A stretch of DNA of 64,000 nt from an uncultured Bacilli bacterium (lineage in GTDB: Bacteria > Bacillota_I > Bacilli_A > RF39 > UBA660): positions 831 to 64,830 of the forward strand of contig CAJUKB010000006.1 in NCBI GenBank assembly GCA_910587325.1, written 5' to 3'. A program made the translations under genes and the position numbers. The notes beneath the pieces were generated by a model. The model saw only the letters and a program-made list of their open reading frames with translations, did not search any database and was not told the origin of the DNA. This document shows positions 3,849-44,030 of the stretch, piece by piece; within the stretch, counting starts at the first letter, position 1; every line of letters begins with the position of its first letter.

Positions 3849-4073
3849 ATGATTATTGTAAATTTAGATGTAATGATGGCAAAAAGAAAAATGTCTTTGA
3901 ATGAACTAAGTTTAAAAACCGGCATTACGACTACAAATCTTTCCATATTAAAAACAAACAAAGCAAAAGCTATTCGCTTTTCTACACTAGAAGCAATTTG
4001 CAAAGCCTTACATTGCCAACCACAAGATATTTTAGAATATGAGGAGAATCAAAATGAAAACAAGGAAAAATGA
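3849..4073 (+). CDS. HTH transcriptional regulator, Cro/C1 (XRE) family, YozG-like
   Basis: 74 aa. MSLNELSLKTGITTTNLSILKTNKAKAIRFSTLEAICKALHCQPQDIL is a classic short XRE helix-turn-helix. Confidence 0.7.
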   Translation: MIIVNLDVMMAKRKMSLNELSLKTGITTTNLSILKTNKAKAIRFSTLEAICKALHCQPQDILEYEENQNENKEK

Positions 4074-5289
4074 AATTTTAACAACAGCTATTTGTAGTTT
4101 TATACTTGCAAGTATAATCACAGTTTTGAAGTTATGGATAAAAGATTTTTATTTAAAAACCTATACTCTTCCCTTTACCCTTTTACTAGTAGGATTTTTA
4201 TTTTTAACCTTTTACTTGAAAGCAGAAAAGAACAAAAAAGCACTAATCCTTCTTATACCTATTCTTTTAATATTAGGAAGTTATTTTATTCCAATTGCCT
4301 TAAGTAACAAAGTAATTAATGTATTTATCTTTCCATTAGTAATAAGCATATTTTTCCTAAGTTATTTAAATAAAAAATATGAGCTTAATCGTCACTTTTG
4401 GAAATGTATTTTTAAACTTTTTCCAAACAAATTATTAGAAAATCTAAAAGAGCTCTCTATTTTCAAGAAGAAGAAGGAAAGAAAAATAAATACTTCCAAA
4501 ATTGCTAACATTTGTATAGGGTGTATAATTGGAATTCCCATCGCTTTTATTATTTTATCTCTATTAACAAGTGCAGACCAATATTTTAATTCTTTTATTG
4601 ATACTTTGTTAGCATTCCTACACAATAGTGAAAAATGGGATACTATTTTAAACAATTTACTAAAAATACTTTTCTATTTTATTATCATTTTTAATATTTA
4701 CAGAAATGCGAGCAAAAGCAAAAAAGAGAAACAAAATAACGAAATAAAAACCAAAGATGTGAATGAGACTATAATCAAAACCATTCTTCTCATTATAAAT
4801 ATGGTATTTATCCTATTTCTTATTTCAGAAATTTCAAAATTAACAATCAATTTTTTAGAATTACCAACAGAATATACATATGCAAGCTATGCAAGGGAGG
4901 GATTTTTCCAATTACTTTTTGTAACAGTAATTAATTTTGTTATCATTACTTATGTACTTTATTATACAAACACTCTTGATAAAAGTAAAAATATCAAAAG
5001 ACATTTACTTGTTTTAATAATATTTTCAATTATCCTTATCTTTAATGCTTACTATCGCATGTTTTTATATATGTATGAGTATGGATTTACTATATTACGA
5101 CTACAAGTCATATTATTTTTACTTATGGAATTCATTCTATTCTGTATTTGTATAAAAAAAATCTGCTTCCATTTAAAAATGAAAGACAGCTTATTATTTA
5201 TGAGTGTCATATTAACTACTTACATCGTTAATTTATATTTATGTATAGAACCTTTTATCAATTTCTTAAATAAAATATTTTTAAAGTAA
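4054..5289 (+). CDS. Large polytopic membrane protein, unknown function
   Basis: ~410 aa with >10 hydrophobic segments. Start moved to the ATG at 4054 (MKTRKNEIL), which is preceded by AGGAGA. Confidence 0.4.
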   Translation: MKTRKNEILTTAICSFILASIITVLKLWIKDFYLKTYTLPFTLLLVGFLFLTFYLKAEKNKKALILLIPILLILGSYFIPIALSNKVINVFIFPLVISIFFLSYLNKKYELNRHFWKCIFKLFPNKLLENLKELSIFKKKKERKINTSKIANICIGCIIGIPIAFIILSLLTSADQYFNSFIDTLLAFLHNSEKWDTILNNLLKILFYFIIIFNIYRNASKSKKEKQNNEIKTKDVNETIIKTILLIINMVFILFLISEISKLTINFLELPTEYTYASYAREGFFQLLFVTVINFVIITYVLYYTNTLDKSKNIKRHLLVLIIFSIILIFNAYYRMFLYMYEYGFTILRLQVILFLLMEFILFCICIKKICFHLKMKDSLLFMSVILTTYIVNLYLCIEPFINFLNKIFLK

Positions 5290-5329
5290 ATGAACCAATG
5301 TTTTAGTTTATTTGCTTTTTTTATTTTAA

Positions 5330-5641
5330 CTATGAAATTAAACGAAATTCTTTTTCTAATTTTTTTCTTTGCAAAGTATAGTCTTTTCCGTAAAGATCTG
5401 CCATCATATGAAAATAGCCATCTAAAAACAAATATTTTTCTACGTCAGTTAATTCATAAGAAAGATATTGCAAATATAATTGATACAAATGAGTTCCTTC
5501 AAAATAGTCATTAGATAGTATATATTTTACAACAAAGTCTTTATTACTTAATAAATAAGACTTTAAAGCATTTGTTTCCTCCGCATCGATTACTAAACGA
5601 AAACGAAAACCAATATTATCTTCTATTTTTGAGTGAGACAT
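5330..5641 (-). CDS. Hypothetical protein
   Basis: 103-aa ORF downstream of fic, same strand. No recognisable motifs. Confidence 0.3.
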   Translation of the reverse strand: MSHSKIEDNIGFRFRLVIDAEETNALKSYLLSNKDFVVKYILSNDYFEGTHLYQLYLQYLSYELTDVEKYLFLDGYFHMMADLYGKDYTLQRKKLEKEFRLIS

Positions 5642-5832
5642 TACAAAACGATTTACAAATTCGTTTATCCTAGAAAATATTTAACAAAGTAAAAAGAATC
5701 TTTTAAAGAAGCACAGGCTTCATAATTTGTTAACCATAATAATGCTAACTTCATTGTTGAAAGCTTATATTTGTTAATAATACTATTTCTTACATTGTTA
5801 ATTTTCATTTCTATCACCTTTATTTCAATTTT

Positions 5833-6381
5833 TCAAAATTCGTCAGTTTCATAGTAATATGAAGTTTCTATACCTTTAAAAATTGTCTCTAAACTAAAAT
5901 CGTCTGTTAAACTATTTTCAATTAAAGTTTTAATTTCTAAAATGTTAATAGGACTTCGTTCCATTGCTTGCAAATACATCCTTTTATCTATTGCTTTCCA
6001 ATTCACTATACGATTTATATTCTTTTTAAGTAGCAAATCCAACCAAATACGCATACTTCTTCCATTACCTTCCAAAAAAGGATGAGCGATATTCATTTCT
6101 ACATATTTAGCAATAATTTCATTTAACGTTGTTTGAGGCATAAGTTCTATCTTTTTTAAAATATCTTCTAAATATAGAGAATTAGCAAATCTAAAATTCC
6201 CTTTTGAAATATTTTCTTTTCTTATCAAGCCCGCAAAACTATACAAATTATCAAACAAATACTTATGAATTTGTTGTAGTCCCTTTACTGTACCTATTTC
6301 AATGGTATCAATTTCATTACTTGTAAATAATCTTTTTGCATTTTCTAAACTTTTTTTATCAGTTTCATTCATACTTGTCAC
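5833..6381 (-). CDS. Fic/Doc-family protein (AMPylation-type Fido domain)
   Basis: Canonical Fic motif [12 protein letters not shown] (HPFx[DE]GNGR) within a 182-aa ORF. Confidence 0.8.
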
Positions 6382-6431
6382 CTTTTATCAAGTATAAAAA
6401 AAGCCTACCTTAGTGGGCTTCGATTTTCAAT

Positions 6432-6505
6432 TGGCAGGGGATGAGAGAATCGAACTCCCAACTAAAGTTTTGGAGACTCCTATTATACCATTTAACTAAT
6501 CCCCT
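6432..6505 (-). tRNA. trnW: tRNA-Trp (anticodon CCA)
   Basis: Minus-strand sequence AGGGGATTAGTTAAATGGTATAATAGGAGTCTCCAAAACTTTAGTTGGGAGTTCGATTCTCTCATCCCCTGCCA folds as a cloverleaf. 7-bp acceptor stem, GTTA/TAAT D stem, anticodon stem GGAGU/ACUUU with loop CUCCAAA, T arm GGGAG-TTCGATT-CTCTC, encoded CCA end. Very close to Bacillus tRNA-Trp. Confidence 0.85.
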
Positions 6506-6578
6506 AAAATTTTTTTCAACAAGGTTATTATAACACAACATTTAACCAATACGCAAATATTTTCATATATTATTCTAG

Positions 6579-7010
6579 GTGATATATATGCTTATTAATT
6601 ATACGACAAAAGAACTGGAATTATTAGCAAGAATTATGCGTGCAGAAGCACTTGCTGAAGGAAACCTTGGAATGCTGATGGTAGGAAATGTAGTCGTAAA
6701 TAGAAGTGTTGCAAATTGTTTAACCTTTAAAAACATTCGTAGCATTACTGATGCCATTTACCAAGCAAACCAATTTGCTGGAACCAATTCTTCTTTATTT
6801 CAAGCCTCTCCTACAACTCATGAAAAAAACTTAGCAGAAAGAGTATTACGTGGAGAATACTACTATCCTGCAACCCATGCTTTATGGTTCTATGCACCTG
6901 CCAAAAATACAAGTTGTCAATCTACTTGGTATGGACAAAAATTAGCTGGAAGTTATAGAAATCATTGTTTTTATAGACCAGATGCTGGAACTTGTGAAGA
7001 ATTGTATTAA
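6579..7010 (+). CDS. Cell-wall hydrolase, SleB/CwlJ (Hydrolase_2) family
   Basis: ELELLARIMRAEALAEGNLGMLMVGNVVVNRS...IYQANQFAG matches the conserved SleB-type catalytic domain. Confidence 0.75.
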   Translation: MIYMLINYTTKELELLARIMRAEALAEGNLGMLMVGNVVVNRSVANCLTFKNIRSITDAIYQANQFAGTNSSLFQASPTTHEKNLAERVLRGEYYYPATHALWFYAPAKNTSCQSTWYGQKLAGSYRNHCFYRPDAGTCEELY

Positions 7011-7024
7011 GCCATATGGCTTTT

Positions 7025-8257
7025 TTATTTTAAATATTCTTGTATAGTTTTAGCTGATTTGAAATTACAAAATATTTTTTCTTTATGATTTTTCATATAT
7101 TCATTTAATTCCTTTTCATTTTTAAAACACAATTTAACTATAAACATCTTTTTATTTAGATTTTCATTATCTAATAAAAGTTTATTATTGTTTTCAATAC
7201 TTTTTAAAACTGAATTATATACAATATTTATTGTAGGAAGTTTAATTTTTTTTGAAAATAAATTAAAATAACAATCCGTATTAAATTGTAGCAAAAAAGA
7301 TTTACCTATATTTTTATTAATAATTTCTAAGTCCTGACCTTCCCAATTTCCATTTAAACAATCTATATGTTCGTAAAACTTTATTGGTTTCTTTTTTATT
7401 AAATTTTGATATAATTCTTCTACTTCACATATTATATTAAATTCCACATCTTCTTTTGGAATATCAAATTTTATTCCCAATTCAGTTTCAATTTTTAAAA
7501 GTTTTTCCCAAAAAGCAGCACTATTTTCATCAAATTTCTTATTATTTTGCATTGTAGAAAATTCTTGTAATTTTACATTATCTACGTATCCATTTCCATC
7601 TATAATAGAATTATATATCATTACGCTTTCTACTATGTCTTTTGTTGATGAAGCAAATTGTAATTTTAAAGAGATATTAAAACTAATTTCCTTCGTTTTT
7701 CTATTAAAAGTACAATCTATTATCAAAGGTGAAGATGTATCTGATTGATATTTTAAAATGTATTTACTATTATTAGGAACTCGTGCAACAATTAACTCTC
7801 TACTATATTTCCTATTACCAATTTTAATGGAGAAAGGGTCTGGAAATTTTGAAGGAATCATGTGAAATTTACCATCAACTAGCTTAAAAGTTTCATAGGG
7901 AAGAAAAGACTTAACCATCAATTTTTCAAGAGCTACTTTTTTACCATTGAGGATTATAAATCCTTCTTCAATTGGTTCCAACTGCATAGTTTTTTGTGAA
8001 TTATAAAAATAATACATCAAATCATTAAAAGTATAATAACTCCCTAAATCTTTTTCTTGCTCTTTAGATAAAATTACTTTTATTCCATCTATTTTAAATT
8101 TTCCGGTTTTTCCAACTACAATATAATTCCCATTTTTGTCTTTTTTGTATTCCAAATCAGATGGTAAATCTTTTTTACCAAAAAAATCTATTAATTCATC
8201 AGGACATTTATATTGCGCTTTTCTATCTGGATTAAAAATCTTATTAAAATCGTACAT
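7025..8257 (-). CDS. Hypothetical protein; downstream member of a two-gene pair (possible AbiGii-like abortive-infection partner)
   Basis: 410 aa with no enzymatic motif. Start overlaps the stop of the upstream 281-aa gene (ATGA). Confidence 0.4.
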   Translation of the reverse strand: MYDFNKIFNPDRKAQYKCPDELIDFFGKKDLPSDLEYKKDKNGNYIVVGKTGKFKIDGIKVILSKEQEKDLGSYYTFNDLMYYFYNSQKTMQLEPIEEGFIILNGKKVALEKLMVKSFLPYETFKLVDGKFHMIPSKFPDPFSIKIGNRKYSRELIVARVPNNSKYILKYQSDTSSPLIIDCTFNRKTKEISFNISLKLQFASSTKDIVESVMIYNSIIDGNGYVDNVKLQEFSTMQNNKKFDENSAAFWEKLLKIETELGIKFDIPKEDVEFNIICEVEELYQNLIKKKPIKFYEHIDCLNGNWEGQDLEIINKNIGKSFLLQFNTDCYFNLFSKKIKLPTINIVYNSVLKSIENNNKLLLDNENLNKKMFIVKLCFKNEKELNEYMKNHKEKIFCNFKSAKTIQEYLK

Positions 8258-9102
8258 TAAAAATCTCCTCCATCGTTATCCCATATAATGATTTTAGAAA
8301 TAAGATCATAAAGTTCTTCTTTAGGTAATGCAAATTTCTCTATCTCCTTTACAATAAATCTAAAGTCCTCATCCGTTTTCACTATAATATATTTTAAATC
8401 AGAATATTCAAAAGTTAAAGAAATCTCTTTATTTTCAATCATGGAATCGCTAAGATCTTTTATATTCCCCAAATCAATAATAGTATCACCAAAATATATA
8501 GGGCTATAATCAGTTTTTGAAACATCTGGGATATATCGCCATTCACATTCATCTGTAAAACATTTTTCTAATGTTTTCTTTTGCAACCGATTTTCCATTT
8601 TTCCCGAATATGGTTTCATATATACTAATTGAGACAATAATTGACTTTTCAAATTTTTTTCTAAAATTGATTCTGGCAAATTTATTGTTTTCAATGCCAA
8701 ATTAAATGCTTTTGTAAAGTCTTTTCTAAAATTTGAAGATGGATTGATATAATGAATTGGTTGAATGTTATTTCGCATTGCCCATTCTTTAGTGAAGGCT
8801 AATCCATAAAATCCATACCAATTTAAATGTTCCCTTATTCTATGTAAATTTATATCGCAAAAACATTTCATAGGTATATATATTTTTTTAATTCTTTTTT
8901 TGTCTTCTTGAACTCTTAAATAACTTATATTTTCTTCACAATATCTTGGGGAAAGCATCTTATTTTTTAAAGGAAAAATAAGGTAAGAAATGTCAGTTGT
9001 AAAATTAAATAAAGTATCTGGATTGACTATAGAAGGAATATGGTTATTAGAAGATTCATAATCTTTAATATTTTTTAAAACTAGATTTGTTTCTGCCTTC
9101 AC
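8257..9102 (-). CDS. Hypothetical protein; upstream member of a two-gene pair (possible AbiGi-like)
   Basis: 281 aa, translationally coupled to the 410-aa ORF. The AbiG-like assignment rests only on sizes, order and neighbourhood (Fic, tRNA, ICE). Confidence 0.4.
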   Translation of the reverse strand: MKAETNLVLKNIKDYESSNNHIPSIVNPDTLFNFTTDISYLIFPLKNKMLSPRYCEENISYLRVQEDKKRIKKIYIPMKCFCDINLHRIREHLNWYGFYGLAFTKEWAMRNNIQPIHYINPSSNFRKDFTKAFNLALKTINLPESILEKNLKSQLLSQLVYMKPYSGKMENRLQKKTLEKCFTDECEWRYIPDVSKTDYSPIYFGDTIIDLGNIKDLSDSMIENKEISLTFEYSDLKYIIVKTDEDFRFIVKEIEKFALPKEELYDLISKIIIWDNDGGDF

Positions 9103-9257
9103 TTAATACAACCTTCTTTACCTATTATTTTTTTAACTGCATTTCATTTTTTGTACTTTATGTTAACTCTAAATTACAGAAAAAGCAACTTATATTCCAT
9201 AAAAAAATACCAAATTTAATTACATTAATTAAATTAGTATTTTTTCATATTTTTACT

Positions 9258-10187
9258 TTATGGTATTAATAATTTTTGGCCAATAGACAATGCACTCGTT
9301 GCTAAATTATTTAAGTTTTGAATAGCCGTTACAGTTGTATTAAAGTTTCTTGCAATGCTATACAAAGTATCCCCACTTTTTACGGTATAAGTTTGATAAC
9401 TTTCCATGTTTGGAATACGTAATCTTTGACCAATACTTAATAGGTTGCTTGTAAGATTATTCATACGTTTTAATTCATCTACTGTTGTTCCAAATTGATT
9501 GGCAATTTTATACAAGCTATCTCCTGATTTTACAACGTAGTATTCTTCACTTTCACTAGGTGTTGTACTTCCACTTACTTTAAGCACTTGGCCAATAGAC
9601 AAAGTATTACTGGTTAAGTTATTCATACGTTTTAATTCATCCACTGTAAGGCCATATCGATTGGCTATTCCATATAAAGTATCCCCACTTTTTACTATGT
9701 AGGTATCTTCACTAGGTGTAGTAGTACCCTCTTTTAATTTCAATACTTGACCAATAGATAAAGCATTGCTTGTTAAATTATTTAATTTTTTTAATTCATC
9801 CACTGTAAGGCCATTATTTCTAGCAATACTCCACAAAGTGTCTCCATTTTTCACAATGTATGTATTTTCAGTAGATACAGGAGTATAAGGTACACCAATA
9901 TATTCAGCAAGAGATTTTACAACCGCTTCTGCTAAACCTTCCCAATTGTTCTTTAGCTGACTTACATCATCCCCAGTACTATCTGCAAAACCATATTCCA
10001 CAATAATTGATTCGTTATTTGGAGTATTTCTTAAAATGTAATAATAATCTTGGTTTGGATTACTTGGTAATCTCCTTTGGTAATACTTGCGAACATTCTG
10101 CCCTGCTTTCGTAAAATTATCACTAATAATACTTGATAAACGATCACTATTACGTAAGGAGTAGATTACTTCCGCACCATCGCCACC
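9258..10187 (-). pseudogene. 3' fragment of a split cell-wall amidase gene (Amidase_3 C-terminal half + 4 LysM repeats), interrupted by the ICE
   Basis: Four LysM repeats (YxVKxGDTLxxIAxxxxxTVxxLxxxNNLTSN). Upstream of the GTG at 10001 the frame stays open to a TGA at 10188-10190 and reads GGDGAEVIYSLRNSD...ESIIVEYGFADSTGDD, the C-terminal half of an Amidase_3 fold. Confidence 0.7.
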
Positions 10188-10209
10188 TCAGGAGTGCCCT
10201 TATGTATAG
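10184..10209. repeat. Left ICE junction (attL-like): CACCTC crossover repeat, 8-nt spacer, 12-bp arm CCTTATGTATAG
   Basis: CACCTC at 10184-10189 recurs at 44025-44030. CCTTATGTATAG (10198-10209) is the exact reverse complement of 44005-44016. The recombinase stop codon is 4 nt away. Confidence 0.6.
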
Positions 10210-10213
10210 TAAT

Positions 10214-11896
10214 TTATCCTTTCTTCTTTTTTCGTGGTTTTACTTCTTTTCTACGAGAGAACGGTGGTTTCTCATATACAAATTCAGTCTTAGGAATAAC
10301 ATTAAATTTATATGTTATTTCTATTTTTCTATCATTATCTATGACTATTTTTTCTATTAACATATCATATATTTCTTTATTTGATTTTTTTAAATCTAAT
10401 AGTTCCTTTATCTTTTTTGTGTAATCTGGAATAACATTTGGTTTATTTTTAATTTGATATTTTTCTATCTGCTTTTGTTGAATAAGTTCATTAATTTTTT
10501 TTAGTTTTTCATCACATTCTTTTGAAAGTTCTTTATACATTTCAGCAGATATAATATCGTTGCATCTATCTTCATAGAGAATGGATAATTTTTTTGTTAT
10601 CTTGTTTTTTTCTGTTTCATATTGAGTTATTACTTTATCAATTTCATTAGTATTTTTATTGATTCTTTTAGCTACTTCATCATTTAATTCCTTAATATTT
10701 AATTTTTTTATATAAACATTAATATCATTATTTATTTTTTCAATCAGTTGTTTTTCTAAATGCTCATAAGGGAAATAATGAGTTCCGCATCTTTGTCTAA
10801 CAGGATCTCTAGAATATCTATTGCAATTAACACTCCAAACATCCGTTTTTTTATGATATTGAACAGATAATCTATTACCACATTCTTTACAAAAAAGCAT
10901 TCCTTCAAACATTCTTATTTCTCTATCTAATTTAGCTTTACATATTCTTGTATGACTTTTTTTAATATTTATACAATATTCAAAAGTTTCTTTATCTACT
11001 AATGCCTCATGTGTATCCTCAACAACTAACCAAAGTCTTTTATCTAGTGTTACTTTTTTCTTGGACTTATAATTAACCTTTGCTTGGGTATGCTGTATCA
11101 TATCTCCTGTATAAATCCTATTATCTAATATTTTCCTTACAGTAGATATATTCCACTTAGTTGCATCAATTAATCTTGATGAATATGCTGTTCCTTTATA
11201 TGCACTAGGTGTTGGCACTCCTTCATCATTTAATCTAGTTGCTATTTCAGAAGGACCGATTCCATCAACTCTCCATTTAAATATTTTTTTTACTATTGGA
11301 GCTGTTTCAGGATTAGGAATGAGATGTCCTTTATCATTAGGATCTCTCATATATCCATAACTTGGTAAACTACCAACAAATTTTCCCTTTTGCCTTTTTT
11401 CATTTAAAACATTTCTTATTTTTATTGAATTTTGTTTACTATAATAATCATTACATGCAATTATGAAAGTTGATGAATCATTACTTGCCTGATTTTTAAA
11501 GCTGTCATAAGATTCTAATATTGAAATAAATCTAATTTGATTTTCAGGAAAAAATGTTTCAATATAATATCCTGTCATAACATGGTCTCTACCTAATCTA
11601 GATAAGTCTTTTACAACAACACAATTTATTTTTTTGTTTTTTATATCTTCCATCATTTTTTGAAAACCAGGTCTGTCAAAATCAGTTCCAGAAAAACCAT
11701 CATCAACATATTCATTTACCAAATTAAAATTATGATTTTTAACATAATCTCTTAATAATTCTTTTTGATTAGCAACACTTTCACTATCAGATTCATATTT
11801 TTTGTCTTTGTCTCTATCTTCCTGAGATAATCTTATATATATCCCTACATTAAATTCAACATCAGTTAAGTAATTATTATTCATCTTTACCTCCAT
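10214..11896 (-). CDS. Large serine recombinase (resolvase catalytic domain + recombinase domain + zinc ribbon + coiled coil)
   Basis: N-terminal VGIYIRLSQEDRD (catalytic Ser) followed by VVVKDLSRLGRD. Central recombinase domain. Cys cluster CKECGNRL...CNRYSRD...CGTHYF. Sits at the element end. Confidence 0.9.
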   Translation of the reverse strand: MEVKMNNNYLTDVEFNVGIYIRLSQEDRDKDKKYESDSESVANQKELLRDYVKNHNFNLVNEYVDDGFSGTDFDRPGFQKMMEDIKNKKINCVVVKDLSRLGRDHVMTGYYIETFFPENQIRFISILESYDSFKNQASNDSSTFIIACNDYYSKQNSIKIRNVLNEKRQKGKFVGSLPSYGYMRDPNDKGHLIPNPETAPIVKKIFKWRVDGIGPSEIATRLNDEGVPTPSAYKGTAYSSRLIDATKWNISTVRKILDNRIYTGDMIQHTQAKVNYKSKKKVTLDKRLWLVVEDTHEALVDKETFEYCINIKKSHTRICKAKLDREIRMFEGMLFCKECGNRLSVQYHKKTDVWSVNCNRYSRDPVRQRCGTHYFPYEHLEKQLIEKINNDINVYIKKLNIKELNDEVAKRINKNTNEIDKVITQYETEKNKITKKLSILYEDRCNDIISAEMYKELSKECDEKLKKINELIQQKQIEKYQIKNKPNVIPDYTKKIKELLDLKKSNKEIYDMLIEKIVIDNDRKIEITYKFNVIPKTEFVYEKPPFSRRKEVKPRKKKKG

Positions 11897-15047: not shown

Positions 15048-18000
15048 TTAATTAGCATATTTTTTGAAATTTTCTGCTTGAGCAAGTACCTCTTCATACA
15101 CAACATCATTTGTTACTGGAGGATATCCAAATTCATCAAGTAAAATAATCAGATCTTGTTGAAGTTCAGCTTTAATATTATCTTTTTTAGACCAATCAGT
15201 ATATTTTGATTTATCTGATACAATTTCTTTAATTTTTTTAGATAATTCAATCATTTTTTCTTGTGGATATTCAAATCCATATTTTACTGAAACAGCAAAT
15301 AAAATATCTAAAAAAGCTTTTTCCTCAAAATCAATTCCTAGTGCTTTAAAACTATTTTTATCTTCTTCAAGGTCTTTCATTAAATTAGTTAGTTCATCTG
15401 AAACTTCTTCTAAAACATTCATAGCAAATTTTTCATCAGCAGATCTGTCATTATAACTATCAATTAAAGTTTGAAGCCTATCCATAAACTCTACACCTTT
15501 TATTTTATTTACTTTCTTATATTCTTCAATAGCTGATTTTAATAATCTTTGCAAAATTTTAATTTTGGTATTTGGCATATTTAATTTATCTAATTTTTTT
15601 AAATAATCTGTACTAAAGATATCTACTTCTCTCACCGTAAATTCTTTTTCTTCTTCAAAAAGTTCTTCTACCCCATCACTAATTAGAGCTTCTTGAATTA
15701 GTTGTCTAACCTTTTGATTCATCAAATCAATATCTGGAGCATCTCCTTTAGTAAGTTTAAAAATTATAGATCTAACAGCACCATAGAAATACATTTTATC
15801 TCTTTCTTCATTAGTTATTTCTTCGTTAGTTCCACAAATATTAAATGCAGATTTGAGATTTTTAGCTCCATACATAAATCTTCTTTCATCTTCTTCATTT
15901 TGTTGAATATATTCTGAAGCTTGATTCAAACAATTTAATCTTTCTACAGGAGTCCCATTAAAGAATTTTGAATTATCAAAATTTCTAAACAATCTATCAA
16001 TAATATCCATCTGATCTCTAAAAACTTTTATTGCTTCTTCTAATCCCTCAAATACAGATGAGTCTTCAGAATTAAATTTCTTTAATGCTAATTGCATTCT
16101 ATTTTTAATACCAATATAATCAACAATTAATCCTTTATCTTTTCCTGGATATTTTCTATTAACTCTAGAAATTGTTTGAATTAGTGTATGGTCTTGTAAT
16201 GGTTTATCAATATACATAGTATCAAGACTTGGAACATCAAAACCTGTAACCCACATATCAACAACAATAGCAATTTTGAAGTTGGATTTTTCATTTTTAA
16301 ATTGTTTATCAAGTTTTTTTCTATATGCTTTATTACCTAATAATTCATGAAGTTCTGGAACATCATTACTGTCCTCGGTCATAACCATATTAATTTTCGG
16401 AATTTCAAACAATTCATCTTGTTCTTTTTTGCTTAATTCATCAAAATTTTCTGCTTTCTTTGGAGTAGCCCAATCTGGTCTTAATTCTATTATAATTTTA
16501 TATAAATCATAAGCAATAAATCTATTCATGCAAACAATCATTGCTTTTCCGTTTACAGTAGCATTTTCAAATACCCTTTTTTCATAATGATTTATTATGT
16601 CCTCAGCAACTCTATGTAATACATCATGATCACCAACAATAACACTTAAATGAGTTGAAGCTTTTTTACTTTCTTCTATTTGATATTCATTTGCTCCTTC
16701 TTCAACACATAAATTATAATATTTTTCTACTTCTTTAATCTTTTCATCATCAAGAAGAACTTTAGCTGATCTTCCTTCATAAGTTATATTTACAGTAATT
16801 TCGTCTTTAACTGAATCTTTCATCGTGTATGCATCAACTATTTCTCCAAACACTTCCATTGTTGCATCTATAGGAGTACCAGAAAATCCAACATAGGTTG
16901 CATTTGGTAAAGAATCATGAAGATACTTTGCAAAACCATATTTCACCTTTACATCAATATCTGTAATTTTATAATTCTTATCAATATTGGTTTGACTTCT
17001 ATGAGCTTCATCTGAGATACAAACAATATTATTTCTATCACTTAATAGGTTAAAGTCTTCAGAGAATTTTTGAATTGTTGTCAAATATACTCCTCCACTT
17101 TCAGTTTCAGACAATATTCTTTTTAGTTCATCTCTTGTTTCAACTTTTTTAATAGTATTATCACCAATAAAATTTTTTGCATTTTCAAAAGTCTTAGCTA
17201 ATTGATCATCAAGATCTGTTCTATCAGTAATTAATATGATTGTCGGATTTTTTAAATCAATATCTTTCATTAAAAGTCTAGATAGATATAACATGGTATA
17301 ACTTTTACCAGATCCAGTTGCACCAAAATATGTTCCACCTTTCCCAGTTCCAATAGGTTTCATATTACTCTTTATACTTTCCAATAGACTTGTAGATGCA
17401 TAATATTGAGGATATCTACATACTATTTTCTCTTCATTTTGGGAATTGTCAGGAAAATATATAAAATTTCTTATTACATTTAATAATCTTTCTTTATTAA
17501 ACAATCCTAGAACCAATGTATGTAACGAATCTATTCCATCAGTCTCTTTAGATTTTTCATTAATTCTTCTCCACGCATAAAAATATTCATAATCTGAAAA
17601 GATAGAACCAATTTTATTATTTACACCATCACTTATAACACAAAAAGCATTATACTTAAAGATTGTTGGTATATCTCTTTTATATCTAATTGTCAATTGT
17701 TCGTAAGCATCATGAATTGTAGTATTTTCTTTAACAGCACTTTTAAATTCAAAAATAACAAGAGGAAGACCATTAATATAGATTATTCCATCTGGTATTC
17801 TTAAATGGTTCTCTTCAAATTCTAATTGATTAACTACTTTAAAATTGTTTTTATCAATTTCATTTTTAGAATAATTAATTAAATTAATATGTATATCCTT
17901 ATCATTGGGATTTTCTCTTTTAAAATCAAATCCATCAGATAAAATTTTTATGAATTTTTTATTTGCTTCATATATTGGATATTTTTCTAATGATTTAATA

Positions 18001-18194
18001 TCTTTAATAATAAAATTTGCTTCATTCATTGAAATATTATAATTTAATAATAAAAATTTTTTTAAATCTTCCTCTAAGATAAATTCGTTTTTTTCTTTAT
18101 GAAGTTCATCACCAACAAAATGATTATAACCATTAGCAGTTAATAAATCCATTATTGCCGATTCAAGAGTGGCTTCACTAAAACTACTTTTCAT
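15048..18194 (-). CDS. hsdR: Type I restriction enzyme, R subunit
   Basis: 1048 aa. Walker A GATGSGKSYTM, DEAH-box ISDEAHRS, helicase C-terminal domain, N-terminal HSDR_N-type nuclease region. Downstream of hsdM-hsdS. Confidence 0.9.
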   Translation of the reverse strand: MKSSFSEATLESAIMDLLTANGYNHFVGDELHKEKNEFILEEDLKKFLLLNYNISMNEANFIIKDIKSLEKYPIYEANKKFIKILSDGFDFKRENPNDKDIHINLINYSKNEIDKNNFKVVNQLEFEENHLRIPDGIIYINGLPLVIFEFKSAVKENTTIHDAYEQLTIRYKRDIPTIFKYNAFCVISDGVNNKIGSIFSDYEYFYAWRRINEKSKETDGIDSLHTLVLGLFNKERLLNVIRNFIYFPDNSQNEEKIVCRYPQYYASTSLLESIKSNMKPIGTGKGGTYFGATGSGKSYTMLYLSRLLMKDIDLKNPTIILITDRTDLDDQLAKTFENAKNFIGDNTIKKVETRDELKRILSETESGGVYLTTIQKFSEDFNLLSDRNNIVCISDEAHRSQTNIDKNYKITDIDVKVKYGFAKYLHDSLPNATYVGFSGTPIDATMEVFGEIVDAYTMKDSVKDEITVNITYEGRSAKVLLDDEKIKEVEKYYNLCVEEGANEYQIEESKKASTHLSVIVGDHDVLHRVAEDIINHYEKRVFENATVNGKAMIVCMNRFIAYDLYKIIIELRPDWATPKKAENFDELSKKEQDELFEIPKINMVMTEDSNDVPELHELLGNKAYRKKLDKQFKNEKSNFKIAIVVDMWVTGFDVPSLDTMYIDKPLQDHTLIQTISRVNRKYPGKDKGLIVDYIGIKNRMQLALKKFNSEDSSVFEGLEEAIKVFRDQMDIIDRLFRNFDNSKFFNGTPVERLNCLNQASEYIQQNEEDERRFMYGAKNLKSAFNICGTNEEITNEERDKMYFYGAVRSIIFKLTKGDAPDIDLMNQKVRQLIQEALISDGVEELFEEEKEFTVREVDIFSTDYLKKLDKLNMPNTKIKILQRLLKSAIEEYKKVNKIKGVEFMDRLQTLIDSYNDRSADEKFAMNVLEEVSDELTNLMKDLEEDKNSFKALGIDFEEKAFLDILFAVSVKYGFEYPQEKMIELSKKIKEIVSDKSKYTDWSKKDNIKAELQQDLIILLDEFGYPPVTNDVVYEEVLAQAENFKKYAN

Positions 18195-19321
18195 TACATC
18201 ATCTCCTTAGTAATTTTTAACAAAAAAATTCTTTTTAGATTTTCCAATATCATATTTTCTCTTTCAAGACTAGAAATTAATTCAAAAAATGTTTCTATTT
18301 TATTATTAAACTTTTCCAAATCTTCTTGTGTAGGTATAAGAAATGGCATATTTTTAATTATCGTAGAATTATATGCCGTTGCTATTGAGGATGTACTACC
18401 AAGTTTATTAAAATCAAAGTATTTTAAATAGCAATATGTATAATATTTATATTCTTTATTAGATGTATTAAAATGTGCAATTGCTTCATTAGTAGCCATA
18501 TCAGTTTTTAATATTCCTACTCTACCTACTGATAGTTTAAAGCTCATTATTACCGTATCTTTAGATATCTTCTTTACCCTATAATTTTCTTGTGCATAAT
18601 TTGTTAATTTTTCCCTAGTATCATATAAATGTATTTTATCTTTCATATCAGCTATTGAAACCCATGGTAAATCTAATTCATTTTCAGAGAAAGCATTATA
18701 ATCTTCACGATCTGGTGTACCACCAATACTTATATCAAATATATTCTTAACTTTATCCACAGTTCCATTTTTACCAAACAATGGTACAAATTTCAAAAAA
18801 ATATTTTTTATTTGTTCTGAAATATTATTAATCATTCTAACATTACTTTCAATCACACTTAGTATTTGTGTATATTGCTCTACTGTTTTATTTTGAATTT
18901 CAATTGAAGGGGGATTAAATTCTATATTACATAAGTCTTCCCATCCTATGCTACCTCTAACACTACTATCCGTCTTGAACCATAAATAATGATCCAAATC
19001 TTTTCTTCTGAACCAAAGCATTAAATAATTTGGATTAAGATGTTGTTCACTTTTTACCTTAAATAACATATATGCAGGTGAAATTATTGATGGTTCATCA
19101 TCTTGGTATAAACAAATCGGTAAAACTTTATCTCTTCCAACATGCATTGGATTACATGCAAAATAATTTTTTCTTAATAGCTTATACTTGCTTAAATCCG
19201 TTCCAACTATATTAGCCACTGATGATATAAATTCTTTATACTTATTTATTCCCAATAGATTAGAATATAAATTGTCTGTATTTTTTTCAGAAACTTTTTC
19301 TATAAAATTACCTAATTTCAT
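18194..19321 (-). CDS. hsdS: Type I R-M specificity subunit, two target-recognition domains
   Basis: 375 aa between hsdM and hsdR with overlapping start and stop. Bipartite repeat organisation typical of HsdS. Confidence 0.8.
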   Translation of the reverse strand: MKLGNFIEKVSEKNTDNLYSNLLGINKYKEFISSVANIVGTDLSKYKLLRKNYFACNPMHVGRDKVLPICLYQDDEPSIISPAYMLFKVKSEQHLNPNYLMLWFRRKDLDHYLWFKTDSSVRGSIGWEDLCNIEFNPPSIEIQNKTVEQYTQILSVIESNVRMINNISEQIKNIFLKFVPLFGKNGTVDKVKNIFDISIGGTPDREDYNAFSENELDLPWVSIADMKDKIHLYDTREKLTNYAQENYRVKKISKDTVIMSFKLSVGRVGILKTDMATNEAIAHFNTSNKEYKYYTYCYLKYFDFNKLGSTSSIATAYNSTIIKNMPFLIPTQEDLEKFNNKIETFFELISSLERENMILENLKRIFLLKITKEMM

Positions 19322-20885
19322 TTTCTATATCCTCTATAATACTTTGAAGTTTATTTTTTAAATCAGTATTTATATTCCATTCCTTTTGCAATTCGTCATT
19401 AATAGTTAATATCTCTTTATCAATCTCAACCTCAATTTCTGGATTTTTATATTTAATGTATGTACTAGGAACAAGTAAATAATTATTTTTTACTATCTCA
19501 TCAGAACTAGCAGAATAGCATAATTCATCAATATTACTATAGTTTTCTTTATTAGTTAACCAAGTATGATAAATAGATGATATTTCATTAATATCTTTTT
19601 TAGTAAATTCTAAATATTTTTTTTCATAAGGTGAGCCATAATTTCTTAAATCCATAAATAAAGTTTCTTTTTCATGATTTCTTACTTTGACTTCTTGACC
19701 ATTTATTTCTTTAATTCTTTCCCTTTTGCTATTTGTTACAATCCATAAACATACACTAATATCTGTTGTATAAAACAGATTCATAGGTAATATACAAATG
19801 GCTTCTACTAGATCGTTTTCTATAAGTTTTTTTCTAATACTATATTCTACTCCATCTCCAGATAAGGAACCATTAGATAATAAGAATCCTGCTGTCCCAT
19901 TACTACTCAATTTTGAAATTATATTTAATATCCAACCATAATTTGCATTTCCAGTAGGAGGAGTATCATATCCACTCCATCTTTCATCATCGGTTAACTC
20001 ATCTTCTTTCCTCCATTTTTTTTGATTAAATGGAGGATTAGCCATTACAAAATCAGCTTTTAAATCTTTATGTTGATCTTTAAAAAATGTATCTGCTTCA
20101 GATTCTCCTAAATCAGCTGAAATACCTCTTATTGCTAAATTCATCTTTGCTAATTTATATGTAGTACGGATGTTTTCTTGCCCATAAATTGATATATCAT
20201 TTCTATTACCATTATGACTTTCAACAAATTTAACAGATTGAACAAACATACCACCAGAACCACATGCAGGATCATAAATTTTTCCTTTATATGGTTGAAT
20301 CATTTCTGCAATTAAATTTACAACACTTTTTGGAGTATAAAATTCTCCTTTACCTTTACCTTCAGCTAATGCAAATTTTTTTAAAAAGAATTCGTAAACT
20401 CTACCTATGATATCATTTTCTTTATCTTTTAAAGTATTTATTTTATTTATTTCATCCAATAATGAAGCAAGTTTGGCTTTATCTAAATTCAATCTAGAAT
20501 AATAGTTATCAGGTAATGCTCCTTTTAATGATTTGTTGTTTTTCTCTATTTCGGATAATGCAGTATCAATTTTAATAGCAATGTCATCTTGCTTAGCATT
20601 TTCCATTATATAACTCCATCTGGATTTCTTTGGTAAATAAAATACATTTTTGCTCATATAAAATGATGGTTGATCCACAAATTTCTCATGTCCTTCTTCT
20701 ATAATTTCCTTTCTTCTTTCTTCAAATTTATCACCAACAAATTTCAAAAAAATTAAAGATAAAACAACATGCTTATATTCAGCTGGTTCAACAGAACCTC
20801 TTAACTCATCACAACTATCCCATAATGTATCTTCAAAACTTTTTTCTTTTTTTGCCATAATAACCCACTCCAATCGTAAAGACAT
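19308..20885 (-). CDS. hsdM: Type I R-M N6-adenine DNA methyltransferase
   Basis: HsdM N-terminal domain. SAM motif DPACGSGGMF. Catalytic motif IV VMANPPFN. Confidence 0.9.
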   Translation of the reverse strand: MSLRLEWVIMAKKEKSFEDTLWDSCDELRGSVEPAEYKHVVLSLIFLKFVGDKFEERRKEIIEEGHEKFVDQPSFYMSKNVFYLPKKSRWSYIMENAKQDDIAIKIDTALSEIEKNNKSLKGALPDNYYSRLNLDKAKLASLLDEINKINTLKDKENDIIGRVYEFFLKKFALAEGKGKGEFYTPKSVVNLIAEMIQPYKGKIYDPACGSGGMFVQSVKFVESHNGNRNDISIYGQENIRTTYKLAKMNLAIRGISADLGESEADTFFKDQHKDLKADFVMANPPFNQKKWRKEDELTDDERWSGYDTPPTGNANYGWILNIISKLSSNGTAGFLLSNGSLSGDGVEYSIRKKLIENDLVEAICILPMNLFYTTDISVCLWIVTNSKRERIKEINGQEVKVRNHEKETLFMDLRNYGSPYEKKYLEFTKKDINEISSIYHTWLTNKENYSNIDELCYSASSDEIVKNNYLLVPSTYIKYKNPEIEVEIDKEILTINDELQKEWNINTDLKNKLQSIIEDIENEIR

Positions 20886-25552: not shown

Positions 25553-26719
25553 TTAAAATATTTCTTTAAATGCTATCACCATTTCATCTATACTTTTATA
25601 TCTTTCAGAAATATTACCAGATATTCCTTTACTAACAAACTTTTTGATTTTCTCATTTGTAATTTTTTCAAGATTTGTTTTTCCAGTCATAACAAACAGT
25701 ATTAATCTTGTCAGTGCATAAGTTTCATATTCTATTGAGTAATTTTTAAAACCTATAACTGCCAAGTTACTATCATTTAATGAGCCTTTTATATCAGAAT
25801 CTGTAGAGGTTAAATTACTATCTTTTTCTTTAACTAATCCAAAGTCAGATATTTTTATTATATCAGAATTATCATAATGTTTTATCAAAATATTTGTTAA
25901 GCTGATATCTCTATGAAGCAATCCTTTACTATGTATATATGAAAATGCTTTAAAAATTTGATATACCAAATTTTTTCTCTTTTCCAAAGATATTTTACTA
26001 TTATTTTTTATTATATAATTATACAAAGTTTCATCAATAAATTCAGCATAATATTCGTTATTATTTTCATCATATCTATATACTTTTAAAACATATAGTG
26101 AATTTAACTTTTGCATTGTTATAAATTCCTTTTTAAATCTTTCTAACTCCTTTTCTGTTAAATTTTTTTTTGCCTTTTTTATTATTACTGGGACATTATA
26201 AAATTCATCAAAATATTTAAACACATGTGCATAAGATCCTTCACCAACTAGAGTTAATTTATATCTTTTTTCAATGTTATTCTGATTTAACTTAACCGTT
26301 TTTGTAAAAAAGAATATAGGCTCATAGTCTACTATTCTTATATGGGTTAAGTCATCTGGTATAGTACTTCCACCACTTGGTACTAAGAACTTTTTACATT
26401 CATCAAAAAAATCTTTATATTCCTTATTAATATCAAAAGCAAAAGTTGAGTCCTTTAAAACATACCTAATATTTTCATACAAATCAATATAATGAATTAA
26501 CTCTCTACTTTCATTAGCATTAAAATGTCCATTGGTTTTATGATACATAAAATCAATTAGGCTATTTATTTCTTGATGCAAAGTAGCAAAAATTAGTTTT
26601 ATATATTTATTATCAATATCATCATACAGTTCTTCTGTTTTAATTGCTCTATCAATTTGAATTTCACTATATTTTTGTTTTAAAAAATATTCTATATTAA
26701 TTGCCATTTTACACCTCAC
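25553..26719 (-). CDS. Eukaryotic-like Ser/Thr protein kinase with an N-terminal ~140-aa domain of unknown function
   Basis: Kinase subdomains are present. Gly loop LVGEGSYAHVF. VAIK-like VIIKKAK. Catalytic loop HRDISLTNILI. DFG motif ISDFGL. Confidence 0.75.
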   Translation of the reverse strand: MRCKMAINIEYFLKQKYSEIQIDRAIKTEELYDDIDNKYIKLIFATLHQEINSLIDFMYHKTNGHFNANESRELIHYIDLYENIRYVLKDSTFAFDINKEYKDFFDECKKFLVPSGGSTIPDDLTHIRIVDYEPIFFFTKTVKLNQNNIEKRYKLTLVGEGSYAHVFKYFDEFYNVPVIIKKAKKNLTEKELERFKKEFITMQKLNSLYVLKVYRYDENNNEYYAEFIDETLYNYIIKNNSKISLEKRKNLVYQIFKAFSYIHSKGLLHRDISLTNILIKHYDNSDIIKISDFGLVKEKDSNLTSTDSDIKGSLNDSNLAVIGFKNYSIEYETYALTRLILFVMTGKTNLEKITNEKIKKFVSKGISGNISERYKSIDEMVIAFKEIF

Positions 26720-44004: not shown

Positions 44005-44030
44005 CTATACATAAGGAAACCTTTCACCTC
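44005..44030. repeat. Right ICE junction (attR-like): 12-bp arm CTATACATAAGG, 8-nt spacer, CACCTC crossover repeat
   Basis: Mirror image of the left junction. The arm is the exact reverse complement of 10198-10209. Confidence 0.6.

Follow-up and report, generated by a model that had tools for sequence, protein, structure and literature searches.

Does the pair of overlapping genes beside an ICE in this uncultured gut bacterium encode a phage-resistance system, and if so, to which family does it belong, how is it carried and how might it work? The initial annotation of the window (the whole 64,000-nt stretch of DNA analysed here) had likened the size and order of the two genes to those of the lactococcal AbiGi/AbiGii pair. 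Our reading, to which we assign a probability of roughly 0.8, is that they form a bona fide two-gene AbiG anti-phage module on an integrase-less cassette, in which AbiGi would be an enzymatic effector and AbiGii a sensor. The features of the module are as follows.

8257..9102, reverse strand: abiGi, 281 aa, GTG start; predicted ADP-ribosyltransferase-like component
7025..8257, reverse strand: abiGii, 410 aa, ATG start; orphan fold, fast-evolving, putative sensor/regulator
8255..8271, reverse strand: predicted translational-coupling junction (GGAGGAG at 8271-8265, 7-nt spacer, TAATG)
9103..9257, reverse strand: upstream intergenic region of 155 nt (amidase terminator hairpin at 9203-9245, then the presumed abiG promoter region)
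7009..7022, unstranded: hairpin AAGCCATATGGCTT, a terminator-like site between the convergent stops of the hydrolase gene and abiGii

Assignment to the AbiG family

The proposed likeness was borne out: Pfam, PADLOC and the lactococcal comparison place both genes in the AbiG family. Scores lay well over the curated Pfam cut-offs for abiGi against PF10899 (AbiGi; 9.3e-24, 84.9 bits, gathering score 22.4) and for abiGii against PF16873 (AbiGii; 4.1e-29, 102 bits, gathering score 25), and the PADLOC models gave full-length matches (AbiGi, 9.5e-86 and 285 bits; AbiGii, 2e-68 and 229 bits). A metabolic family, the competing assignment that the initial annotation had envisaged, was returned for neither gene by the profile searches. 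The lactococcal reference was NZ_CP094475.1 (locus L116), which stands for the AbiG of Lactococcus plasmid pCI750 and its relatives: abiGi is 32% identical to its AbiGI by BLASTP (E=1e-39), while abiGii was aligned to its AbiGII by hhalign with a probability of 97.2% over 288 columns, and this AbiGII is itself the PF16873 archetype (524 bits). At the NCBIfam equivalog level, abiGi scored 112 bits against NF042957 (AbiGI; cutoff 300) and AbiGii had no NCBIfam match, so that the pair is a divergent AbiG member rather than an equivalog. On these comparisons, membership in the AbiG family is close to certain, and the locus is an ordinary divergent addition to an already known family. That the pair acts as phage defence in this host is probable. 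No homologue of AbiGi was found in the phage genome collection.

Layout and expression signals

The 281-aa ORF (8257-9102, reverse strand) and the 410-aa ORF (7025-8257, reverse strand) run in the same direction and overlap, as originally described, but not through an ATGA stop/start: read directly, the junction is TAATG, a 1-nt overlap between the abiGi stop (TAA, 8259-8257) and the abiGii start (ATG, 8257-8255). The two genes are predicted to form a co-directional bicistronic operon with abiGi upstream, a layout with equivalents at L108, L113 and L116. The Shine-Dalgarno sequence of abiGii, GGAGGAG, lies inside abiGi, and that of abiGi is AGAAGG at 9117-9112. The same zero-gap, 1-nt-overlap arrangement is seen in the unrelated AbiG loci L108 and L113, and gene order, sizes and overlap together recur in these two and in five of six viral-contig loci.

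Upstream of the pair, the amidase terminator hairpin corresponds to inverted repeat I22 (20-nt arms, 3-nt gap). No consensus sigma-70 site upstream of abiG passed the promoter scan, in which sites were no more numerous than expected from shuffled sequence, and we therefore speak only of a presumed abiG promoter. Downstream, T/A runs flank the hairpin AAGCCATATGGCTT on both sides, and it is probably a bidirectional terminator.

A cassette between conserved cell-wall hydrolase genes

The surroundings of the pair comprise the following features.

7011..9257, reverse strand: AbiG cassette (variable slot A), 2,247 bp from the stop codon of the conserved amidase gene to that of the conserved hydrolase gene
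6579..7010, forward strand: CwlJ/SleB-type cell-wall hydrolase gene (Pfam PF07486, 2e-17), right border of slot A; context, outside the AbiG system
9258..10187, reverse strand: left border of slot A; codons 91-399 (3' portion) of an ICE-interrupted Amidase_3 + 4xLysM gene
6432..6505, reverse strand: tRNA-Trp(CCA) (ARAGORN; Rfam 60.9 bits), a context gene
5290..6411, reverse strand: variable slot B, with a Fic gene (5833-6381), a 47-aa ORF (5665-5808) and a 103-aa ORF (5330-5641); separate from AbiG

AbiG is carried as a swappable, integrase-less cassette of 2.25 kb between conserved, convergent cell-wall-hydrolase genes. Homology to L028, the closest AbiG-less relative, stops at window position 9259 and restarts at 7009, and these breaks coincide exactly with the two stop codons. 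The right-hand neighbour (140-143 aa, Hydrolase_2 domain only) is a conserved core gene, present in 58 of 80 species loci at 62-96% identity. The left-hand amidase gene is interrupted by a 33.8-kb ICE: the intact 399-aa amidase of L007 matched by tblastn in two parts, each at 100% identity, with residues 1-91 encoded at 44298-44026 and residues 91-399 at 10187-9261. The ICE reported directly beside the region is present, but AbiG is not part of its cargo, since the GAGGTG cores at which the element stops are within the amidase gene, which leaves AbiG outside. In 17 of the 54 syntenic species loci slot A is empty (25-107 bp); the rest hold other cargo, which among species includes a C5-MTase with MTaX1, GmrSD, AbiEii, a HipA-like protein, an AAA_21 ATPase, a dUTPase and CmpB. 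A search for direct or inverted repeats flanking the cassette gave chance-level AT-rich matches only.

The tRNA-Trp, the Fic-domain gene and the SleB-type hydrolase that had been grouped with the pair into a single islet were all recovered (ARAGORN, Rfam, Pfam, NCBIfam). The grouping itself did not stand, as the lineage has tRNA-Trp and the hydrolase gene in its conserved core, with AbiG and Fic in two separate variable slots on either side. The tRNA is conserved together with the hydrolase, L028 and L031 included, and its 3' end adjoins slot B. It was rejected as an integration site for AbiG: the conserved hydrolase gene stands between the two, and the tRNA adjoins the Fic slot. The slot B block is missing from L028, the Fic gene adjoins the hydrolase in only five of the syntenic species loci, and strain variants carry an extra DUF2441 or a 158-aa ORF. 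The Fic gene (5833-6381, reverse strand) resembles NmFic-type class III Fic proteins in its equivalog score (NCBIfam NF046029, 271 bits, cutoff 230), in its intact active-site motif HxFx(D/E)GNGRxxR and in a C-terminal, inhibitory-helix-like SYYYE; it differs from them in having T rather than G/N after the inhibitory Glu of the class III [ST]xxxE[GN] pattern, in its position in a variable slot by a tRNA and in its match to the PADLOC defence candidate PDC-S04 (7e-84). Beyond proximity, we found nothing that links AbiG to Fic.

Distribution across species and strains

The related loci anchored on the flanks all come from MAGs of uncultured gut Bacilli/'Tenericutes' of low GC (25% here). A spore-forming, Clostridium-like host, to which this base composition might point, was rejected on that ground. 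AbiG was found at the corresponding locus in none of the 80 related species loci, so that the pair does not belong to the conserved core of the wider lineage and has the sporadic distribution that the initial annotation had singled out as informative. Within its own species the pair appears fixed: all 10 places with an identical hydrolase among the matches listed carry AbiG, nine with the complete pair and one ending at a contig end within abiGii. Synonymous diversity in these strains was 0-0.008 for AbiG versus 0.031-0.059 for the flanks (Fisher p 1e-6 to 6e-3), that is, 4-20 times lower or zero, which suggests that AbiG spread recently. With at most 6 substitutions per gene, dN/dS on the strain alleles was uninformative. 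Decay of AbiGii was considered for GCA_948667015.1 (L011/L022), where the gene is split, and rejected: CmpB, a sortase and a recombinase are split in that MAG too, which makes an assembly error more likely. Elsewhere, AbiG homologues reside on plasmids, in IS-rich islands and on viral contigs, with no cell-wall genes nearby, and AbiGi occurs without its partner on E. coli plasmids.

A candidate effector and its putative sensor

The two proteins evolve differently: AbiGi is the better conserved partner, whereas AbiGii is fast-evolving and has few invariant polar residues (AbiGi/AbiGii identities in cognate pairs of 60/42, 55/37 and 32/about 20%). In an alignment of 42 AbiGi sequences, R53 is present in 41 and both C80-F-C82 and E185-x-E187 in all 42. 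Measured against the signature of ADP-ribosyltransferases (ARTs), which has the order R / S-T-S / [QE]-x-E, AbiGi has R53 and E185-x-E187 in order but C80-F-C82 instead of S-x-S as motif II; a CxS variant of this motif is known from a related family (PMC12522546). In the AF2 model (pLDDT 83), E187 would open a strand and the C-F-C would close one ahead of a helix, a placement consistent with ART topology. The top three Foldseek matches of this model in the PDB were all DarT, each weak and sub-threshold (E=0.06-0.17). A PDB sequence-profile search with AbiGi returned no matches, and DarT was not matched in scans with PADLOC and Pfam at permissive thresholds, where the only weak matches to recur were PDC-S59 (10 of 42 AbiGi sequences) and DUF2971, the most recurrent secondary Pfam match (4 of 42). 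Published work lists AbiGi (PF10899) among the known ART-like families, close to DUF2971 and DarT, and assigns it to the R-S-E clade, DarT being H-Y-E (PMC12522546). From the invariant ExE, the near-invariant R53, the weak DarT fold matches and this 2025 literature, we infer that AbiGi may be an ADP-ribosyltransferase-like effector.

AbiGii is represented by 323 cluster representatives among 1.84 billion proteins. It had no credible fold match in the PDB or BFVD (a viral structure library), and a PDB sequence-profile search with it gave only matches of E>0.2. Its Foldseek matches to RNA polymerase beta are tempting given the effect of AbiG on transcription; an RNA polymerase beta-like AbiGii was nonetheless rejected, the matches (probability <=0.13, TM ~0.1, many entries of one protein) being noise. 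AbiGii is the putative phage sensor.

We propose that abiGi and then abiGii would be expressed as a translationally coupled two-gene module, in which the role of enzymatic effector would fall to AbiGi as a divergent R-S-E-clade ADP-ribosyltransferase (R53 / C80-F-C82 / E185-x-E187), and AbiGii would be the specificity and sensor subunit that would hold AbiGi silent until a late phage structural protein is met. In the lactococcal archetype the trigger is such a protein, the major tail protein of phage p2 (PMC12184496). Activated AbiGi would transfer ADP-ribose to the transcription machinery or to nucleic acid; phage RNA synthesis would be shut off and the infection aborted, in keeping with the reduced phage transcription reported for lactococcal AbiG (PMC13064643). 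The specific division of labour between a catalytic ART and an AbiGii sensor is put forward tentatively, at somewhat under even odds.

Alternative readings

AbiG could be a defence module in which AbiGi is a dead or non-ART scaffold and AbiGii does the killing, for instance by direct interference with RNA polymerase. The ART evidence for AbiGi is sub-threshold and its motif II non-canonical, the best Foldseek matches of AbiGii are lobe domains of the RNA polymerase beta subunit, and lactococcal AbiG lowers phage transcription (PMC13064643). We consider this division of roles unlikely, however, as the polymerase matches amount to noise, as fast evolution with few invariant polar residues sets AbiGii apart from AbiGi, and as the AbiGi motifs (ExE and C-F-C invariant, R near-invariant) persist across the alignment of 42 AbiGi sequences and also in lactococcal AbiGI (32% identity), a conservation that argues for a maintained active site.

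The Pfam text for PF10899 and PF16873 describes AbiGii as toxin and AbiGi as antitoxin of a 'type IV TA'. A classic toxin-antitoxin or addiction module, mainly stabilising the islet or the nearby ICE rather than acting against phage, would agree with the bicistronic overlapping layout typical of such pairs and with the mobile, variable DNA in which the pair sits. Yet neither lactococcal abiGi nor abiGii inhibited growth when present singly in E. coli (Dy et al., PMC3985639), the supposed antitoxin is the more conserved partner and has enzyme-like invariant polar residues, its solo occurrence on E. coli plasmids is unexpected for an antitoxin, and the cassette lies outside the ICE; we regard this reading as very unlikely.

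A role in the cell wall or sporulation together with the amidase and the CwlJ/SleB-type hydrolase is hardly credible: the pair does lie exactly between these two genes, in every strain-level place among the matches listed, but in 17 species the two stand next to each other with no AbiG between them, and in others they flank unrelated cargo, AbiG homologues occur far from cell-wall genes (plasmids, IS-rich islands, viral contigs), and the synonymous diversity of the cassette records a history different from that of its flanks.

Implications

The anti-phage module favoured here adds an uncultured gut lineage with reduced genomes to the known range of the AbiG family and offers a clean natural case of a fixed chromosomal slot whose cassettes are swapped. 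The mechanism of AbiG, a 30-year-old question (since 1996), becomes a directly testable hypothesis, because ART-like motifs are kept from a gut bacterium to Lactococcus, because a conserved AbiGi contrasts with a fast-evolving AbiGii and because a tail-protein trigger has been published. On AbiG as an ART, there is at present no cross-reference between work on ARTs (PMC12522546) and work on Abi systems (PMC13064643, which states 'no similarity'). In a wider scheme, possible but doubtful, AbiG would be an ART-based immune module, with AbiGi a DarT-like effector that ADP-ribosylates nucleic acid or RNAP and AbiGii a new sensor of the tail-tube protein; its cassettes would be exchanged without an integrase in reduced-genome gut Bacilli, the conserved amidase and hydrolase genes serving as the sites of homologous recombination, and the junction would be a lineage-wide defence hotspot.

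Comparison with known systems

The pair shares with lactococcal AbiG the two Pfam families, gene order, direction, tight coupling and similar sizes (281/410 aa, against an annotated 293/397 aa in Lactococcus), as well as the R, CFCD and ExEWR motifs of AbiGi. AbiGii, however, is only about 19-23% identical and detectable by profile methods alone, the genes are separated by a 2-nt gap in Lactococcus and overlap by 1 nt here, and a conjugative dairy plasmid there contrasts with a chromosomal slot of a gut Bacilli/'Tenericutes' MAG lineage here.

DarTG, which pairs the DNA ADP-ribosyltransferase toxin DarT with the antitoxin DarG, halts phage nucleic-acid synthesis when activated. Akin to AbiG, it is a two-gene defence module, and DarT provided the only above-noise, though weak, structural matches of AbiGi, which also clusters near DarT and DUF2971 in published sequence clustering (PMC12522546). 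AbiG differs in that it has no macrodomain or DarG-like partner, AbiGii having matched no known antitoxin or hydrolase in our searches, in that DarT is H-Y-E and AbiGi of the R-S-E clade (PMC12522546), with no DarT match by HMMER or PADLOC, and in that lactococcal AbiGi is non-toxic alone (PMC3985639). By analogy, AbiG may work like DarTG, but it does not belong to that system.

In CmdTAC-type systems, an ART toxin is restrained until a phage structural protein, the capsid, is sensed. AbiG has two genes rather than three, with no recognisable chaperone or antitoxin, and the likeness is one of analogy only: in both, an ART-like effector would be joined to a partner that answers a late structural protein of the phage, the capsid for CmdTAC and the major tail protein for lactococcal AbiG (PMC12184496).

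The gene pair and its family

The two ORFs of 281 and 410 aa that the initial annotation had read as a possible AbiG-like pair were located on the reverse strand, together with the following features.

Features around the AbiG cassette (window positions)
5833-6381, -, Fic-domain ORF
6432-6505, -, tRNA-Trp(CCA)
6579-7010, +, Hydrolase_2 ORF, 140-143 aa
7009-7022, hairpin between the convergent abiGii and hydrolase stops
7025-8257, -, abiGii ORF, 410 aa, ATG start
8257-9102, -, abiGi ORF, 281 aa, GTG start with AGAAGG 5' of it
9203-9245, amidase terminator hairpin, upstream of abiGi
10187-9261, amidase codons 91-399
10214-11896, large serine recombinase of the ICE
44298-44026, amidase codons 1-91

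The junction of the pair reads GGAGGAGATTTTTAATGTAC: the abiGi stop (TAA, 8259-8257) and the abiGii ATG (8257-8255) have a single base in common, giving TAATG instead of the ATGA overlap claimed earlier, and a strong Shine-Dalgarno sequence (GGAGGAG) lies 7 nt 5' of the abiGii start.

Profile searches were clearly positive for both genes. The 281-aa protein matched Pfam AbiGi (PF10899) with 84.9 bits (gathering score 22.4) and PADLOC AbiGi over its full length (9.5e-86), and the 410-aa protein matched Pfam AbiGii_2 (PF16873) with 102 bits (gathering score 25) and PADLOC AbiGii, again at full length (2e-68). Homology was also found directly with our reference for comparison, an operon annotated as abiGI/abiGII on a conjugative plasmid from Lactococcus lactis: lactococcal AbiGI aligned with the window AbiGi at 32% identity over 288 columns (E=1e-39). 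Pairwise alignment hardly picked up lactococcal AbiGII, the archetype of PF16873 at 524 bits (23% identity over 79 aa), but a 27-sequence AbiGii profile matched it with 97.2% probability over 288 columns. The strict NCBIfam equivalog model for AbiGI scored the window AbiGi at 112 bits, below its cutoff of 300, and an NCBIfam search with the window AbiGii gave no match. These results support the AbiG reading and show the pair to be a divergent family member, not an ortholog-level copy. The defence family is already known and the pair is a new divergent member of it, from a lineage in which AbiG had no earlier description; nothing is categorically new, because specialist papers already treat AbiGi as ART-like.

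Relatives of AbiGi are numerous and well conserved (512 matches, many 50-60% identical). Searching 1.84 billion cluster representatives exhaustively with HMMER yielded only 323 AbiGii relatives, all of about 400-420 aa and none of them a fusion, with a top non-self match of 42% identity. Identities to the window AbiGi/AbiGii are 60/42% and 55/37% at two unrelated AbiG loci (L113 and L108, respectively) and 32/about 20% in Lactococcus. The zero-gap gene order recurs in IS-rich islands adjoining BrnT and PDDEXK genes, beside TnpV and in five of six IMG/VR contigs. AbiGi homologues are carried by 91 plasmids (Escherichia 45, Enterococcus 18, Klebsiella 9, Bacillus 8, Lactococcus 5) and by none of 50,697 phage records. 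On the E. coli plasmid NZ_CP083507.1 (L117) an AbiGi-family gene (3953-4774) stands between psiB/parB leading-region genes and Avs4, with no AbiGii within 4 kb, and at least 45 E. coli plasmids have such a homologue, which suggests that the AbiGi domain can work without AbiGii or with other partners. In a metagenome contig from an unrelated bacterium (L111; positions 157-2213 and 6182-8238), a ~6-kb cassette that comprises AbiGi-AbiGii together with HTH, PDDEXK_2 and BrnT genes is present in tandem duplicate.

A variable slot between two conserved genes

The 2,247 bp between the amidase stop and the convergent hydrolase stop consist of the AbiG pair, its own upstream region and terminators. 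Nucleotide homology to the closest AbiG-less relative (L028) ends at 9259 and restarts at 7009, exactly at both stop codons. Strain-level contigs were retrieved by exact protein identity of the flanking hydrolase, and AbiG was present at all 10 places listed for it (complete pair in nine, contig end within abiGii in one). Among 80 related species loci (L028-L107), each covering ~10 kb on both sides, tblastn (E<=1e-5) detected AbiGi or AbiGii in none. These loci were chosen as the top amidase matches, a choice that under-represents genomes with a split amidase, the representative of the window's own species probably being one of them. Among species, the distribution at this locus is sporadic.

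The convergent amidase-hydrolase arrangement is kept in 54 of the 80 loci. In 17 of these the slot is empty (25-107 bp); about two dozen have a gap of 0.5-1 kb, and the remainder one of 1-8 kb. A few of the largest gaps hold a truncated amidase ORF and a serine recombinase, so that part of these 'gaps' is an element within the amidase gene. Some occupants are defence or mobile genes: a C5 cytosine methylase with MTaX1 in L028 and, elsewhere, HipA-like (L029), GmrSD (L083), AbiEii (L047), AAA_21 ATPase (L045/L054), T4SS coupling protein, HerA and serine recombinase genes. Others are small genes of housekeeping type, namely dUTPase, a component of a CmpB-type transporter, ClpB-like (L071) and RelA/SpoT (L104) genes. 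Within the AbiG cassette no integrase was found, nor were repeats found flanking it.

A 43-nt direct repeat of 72% identity (5291-5333 and 6995-7037) has one copy just beyond the DUF4153 stop and the other across the hydrolase/abiGii terminator, with orf103, Fic, tRNA and hydrolase between them; it may be due to chance in AT-rich DNA. An Amidase_3-LysM gene and a CwlJ-sized Hydrolase_2 gene are conserved side by side in convergent orientation across at least 54 species of 'Tenericutes'/'Mycoplasma'-labelled MAGs (L028-L107); such hosts evidently make peptidoglycan and may possess lytic enzymes of the germination type. AbiGii, CmpB, sortase and serine recombinase are each in two ORFs in GCA_948667015.1 (L011/L022), most likely reflecting assembly indel errors and not real pseudogenes.

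Synonymous divergence from the window was compared between 7025-9102 and the flanking segments 6588-7010 and 9258-10187 in five strains (L001, L004, L010, L013, L018), using synonymous sites alone because the loci had been retrieved by protein identity. It was 0-0.008 for abiGi and abiGii and 0.031-0.059 for the amidase and hydrolase segments of the same strains, that is, zero or 4-20 times below the immediate flanks (Fisher p from 1e-6 to 6e-3; hydrolase alone, p from 0.001 to 0.1). This lower divergence indicates that the cassette has a history younger than, or separate from, that of its flanks. It is in keeping with a recently acquired cassette that has spread, putatively through homologous recombination within the conserved genes on either side.

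The Fic, tRNA-Trp and hydrolase genes grouped with the pair into one islet by the initial annotation are all present, but the hydrolase and tRNA-Trp are conserved throughout the lineage and are core genes outside any islet. The hydrolase has the Hydrolase_2 catalytic domain only and is therefore CwlJ-sized (SleB model 42 bits, cutoff 236). Fic is of the class III NmFic type (NCBIfam equivalog model 271 bits, cutoff 230), has its 12-residue motif intact and an inhibitory-helix-like SYYYE at the C-terminus, and is matched by PDC-S04, a defence candidate in PADLOC (7e-84). The Fic gene and two small ORFs, of 47 and 103 aa, make up a second variable block (about 5290-6411), in which no integrase is present and which starts less than 20 bp from the tRNA-Trp 3' end. 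The block is absent from L028, strain variants have an extra DUF2441 gene or have both small ORFs replaced by one of 158 aa, and Fic adjoins the hydrolase in only five species loci. No signs of joint Fic-AbiG action were found.

Possible mechanism of AbiG

In Lactococcus, AbiG lowers phage transcription and, with P335 phages, also delays replication; escape mutations are located in the major tail protein, and expression of phage p2 Mtp is toxic in AbiG+ cells only, its escape allele being non-toxic (PMC13064643, PMC12184496). Neither protein alone is toxic in E. coli (PMC3985639). A 2026 review stated that structural similarity could not be found for either protein (PMC13064643), and a 2025 survey placed AbiGi (PF10899) among known ART-like families, in an R-S-E clade neighbouring DUF2971, DarT and Tox-ART-HYD1 (PMC12522546).

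AF2 models made from family alignments were confident for AbiGi (pLDDT 83, pTM 0.78) and AbiGii (pLDDT 84, pTM 0.73). The top three PDB matches of the AbiGi model (Foldseek) were all Thermus DarT and, though weak (E=0.06-0.17, probability 0.44-0.60), stood apart from noise at probability 0.07 or less. The commonest recurring secondary Pfam match of AbiGi members was DUF2971 (4/42, best E=0.19, also weak). Candidate ART signature residues are R53 (41/42), C80-F-C82 (42/42) and E185-x-E187 (42/42), and lactococcal AbiGI has the R, C-F-C and E-x-E residues as well. In the model R53 lies at a strand start, C80-F-C82 at the end of a strand that leads into a helix, and E185-x-E187 at a strand start preceded by a loop, a predicted placement consistent with ART topology. 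AbiGii, modelled as a small N-terminal alpha/beta region, a beta-rich middle, three long helices and a C-terminal sheet of long hairpins, had no credible Foldseek match in PDB or BFVD and no recurrent secondary Pfam family; its predicted fold is an orphan. Most useful here are the proposed mechanism of AbiG, which is concrete enough to be tested, and the slot itself, a natural hotspot in which integrase-free cassette exchange can be studied. Separately, 10 of the 42 AbiGi relatives (alignment A3) weakly matched the PADLOC candidate PDC-S59 (best E=0.003), a candidate defence system that may contain an AbiGi-like domain.

Host lineage and the interrupted amidase gene

The best-scoring matches to the neighbouring amidase, 80 species-level loci, all come from MAGs of uncultured gut 'Bacilli', 'Tenericutes' or 'Mycoplasma sp. 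CAG', including Ca. Ventrenecus, CAG:460 and CAG:776, which rules out a clostridial origin of the window. Contig CATMXB010000007.1 (GCA_950079075.1) matches the window.

The 247-aa LysM ORF (9258-10001) is what remains of the 3' part of a 399-aa gene for Amidase_3 with four LysM domains, intact in a metagenome contig (L007) and interrupted here at codon 91 by an element of ~33.8 kb (about 10190-44024). Its junctions (near 10184-10189 and 44025-44030) share the 6-nt core GAGGTG and imperfect inverted repeats, and, from the junction sequences, precise excision would regenerate the L007 amidase sequence. The element encodes a T4SS coupling protein, a VirB4-like ATPase, a relaxase-like protein, an M23 peptidase, ParB, a thioester/SpaA adhesin, a Ser/Thr kinase and a type I R-M system. 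The recombinase, conjugation genes and core/repeat ends justify the label 'ICE' given initially, and the AbiG pair does lie just beyond the ICE border. The eukaryotic-type kinase gene (25553-26719) and the complete R-M system (HsdR, HsdS, HsdM; 15048-20885), which adjoins an HTH/MqsA-like regulator, may be defence cargo.

The Amidase_3-LysM gene is a repeated target of large-serine-recombinase elements (the window and strain contigs L001, L003, L004, L010, L013 and L018). Other strains have different elements in it, with type IIG R-M plus DUF6119, Mrr, AAA_15/21 ATPase and SLFN-like helicase as cargo. Several further species have a serine recombinase directly adjoining amidase codon ~13-17. 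These amidase-targeting elements resemble the gene-interrupting 'intervening elements' of spore formers.
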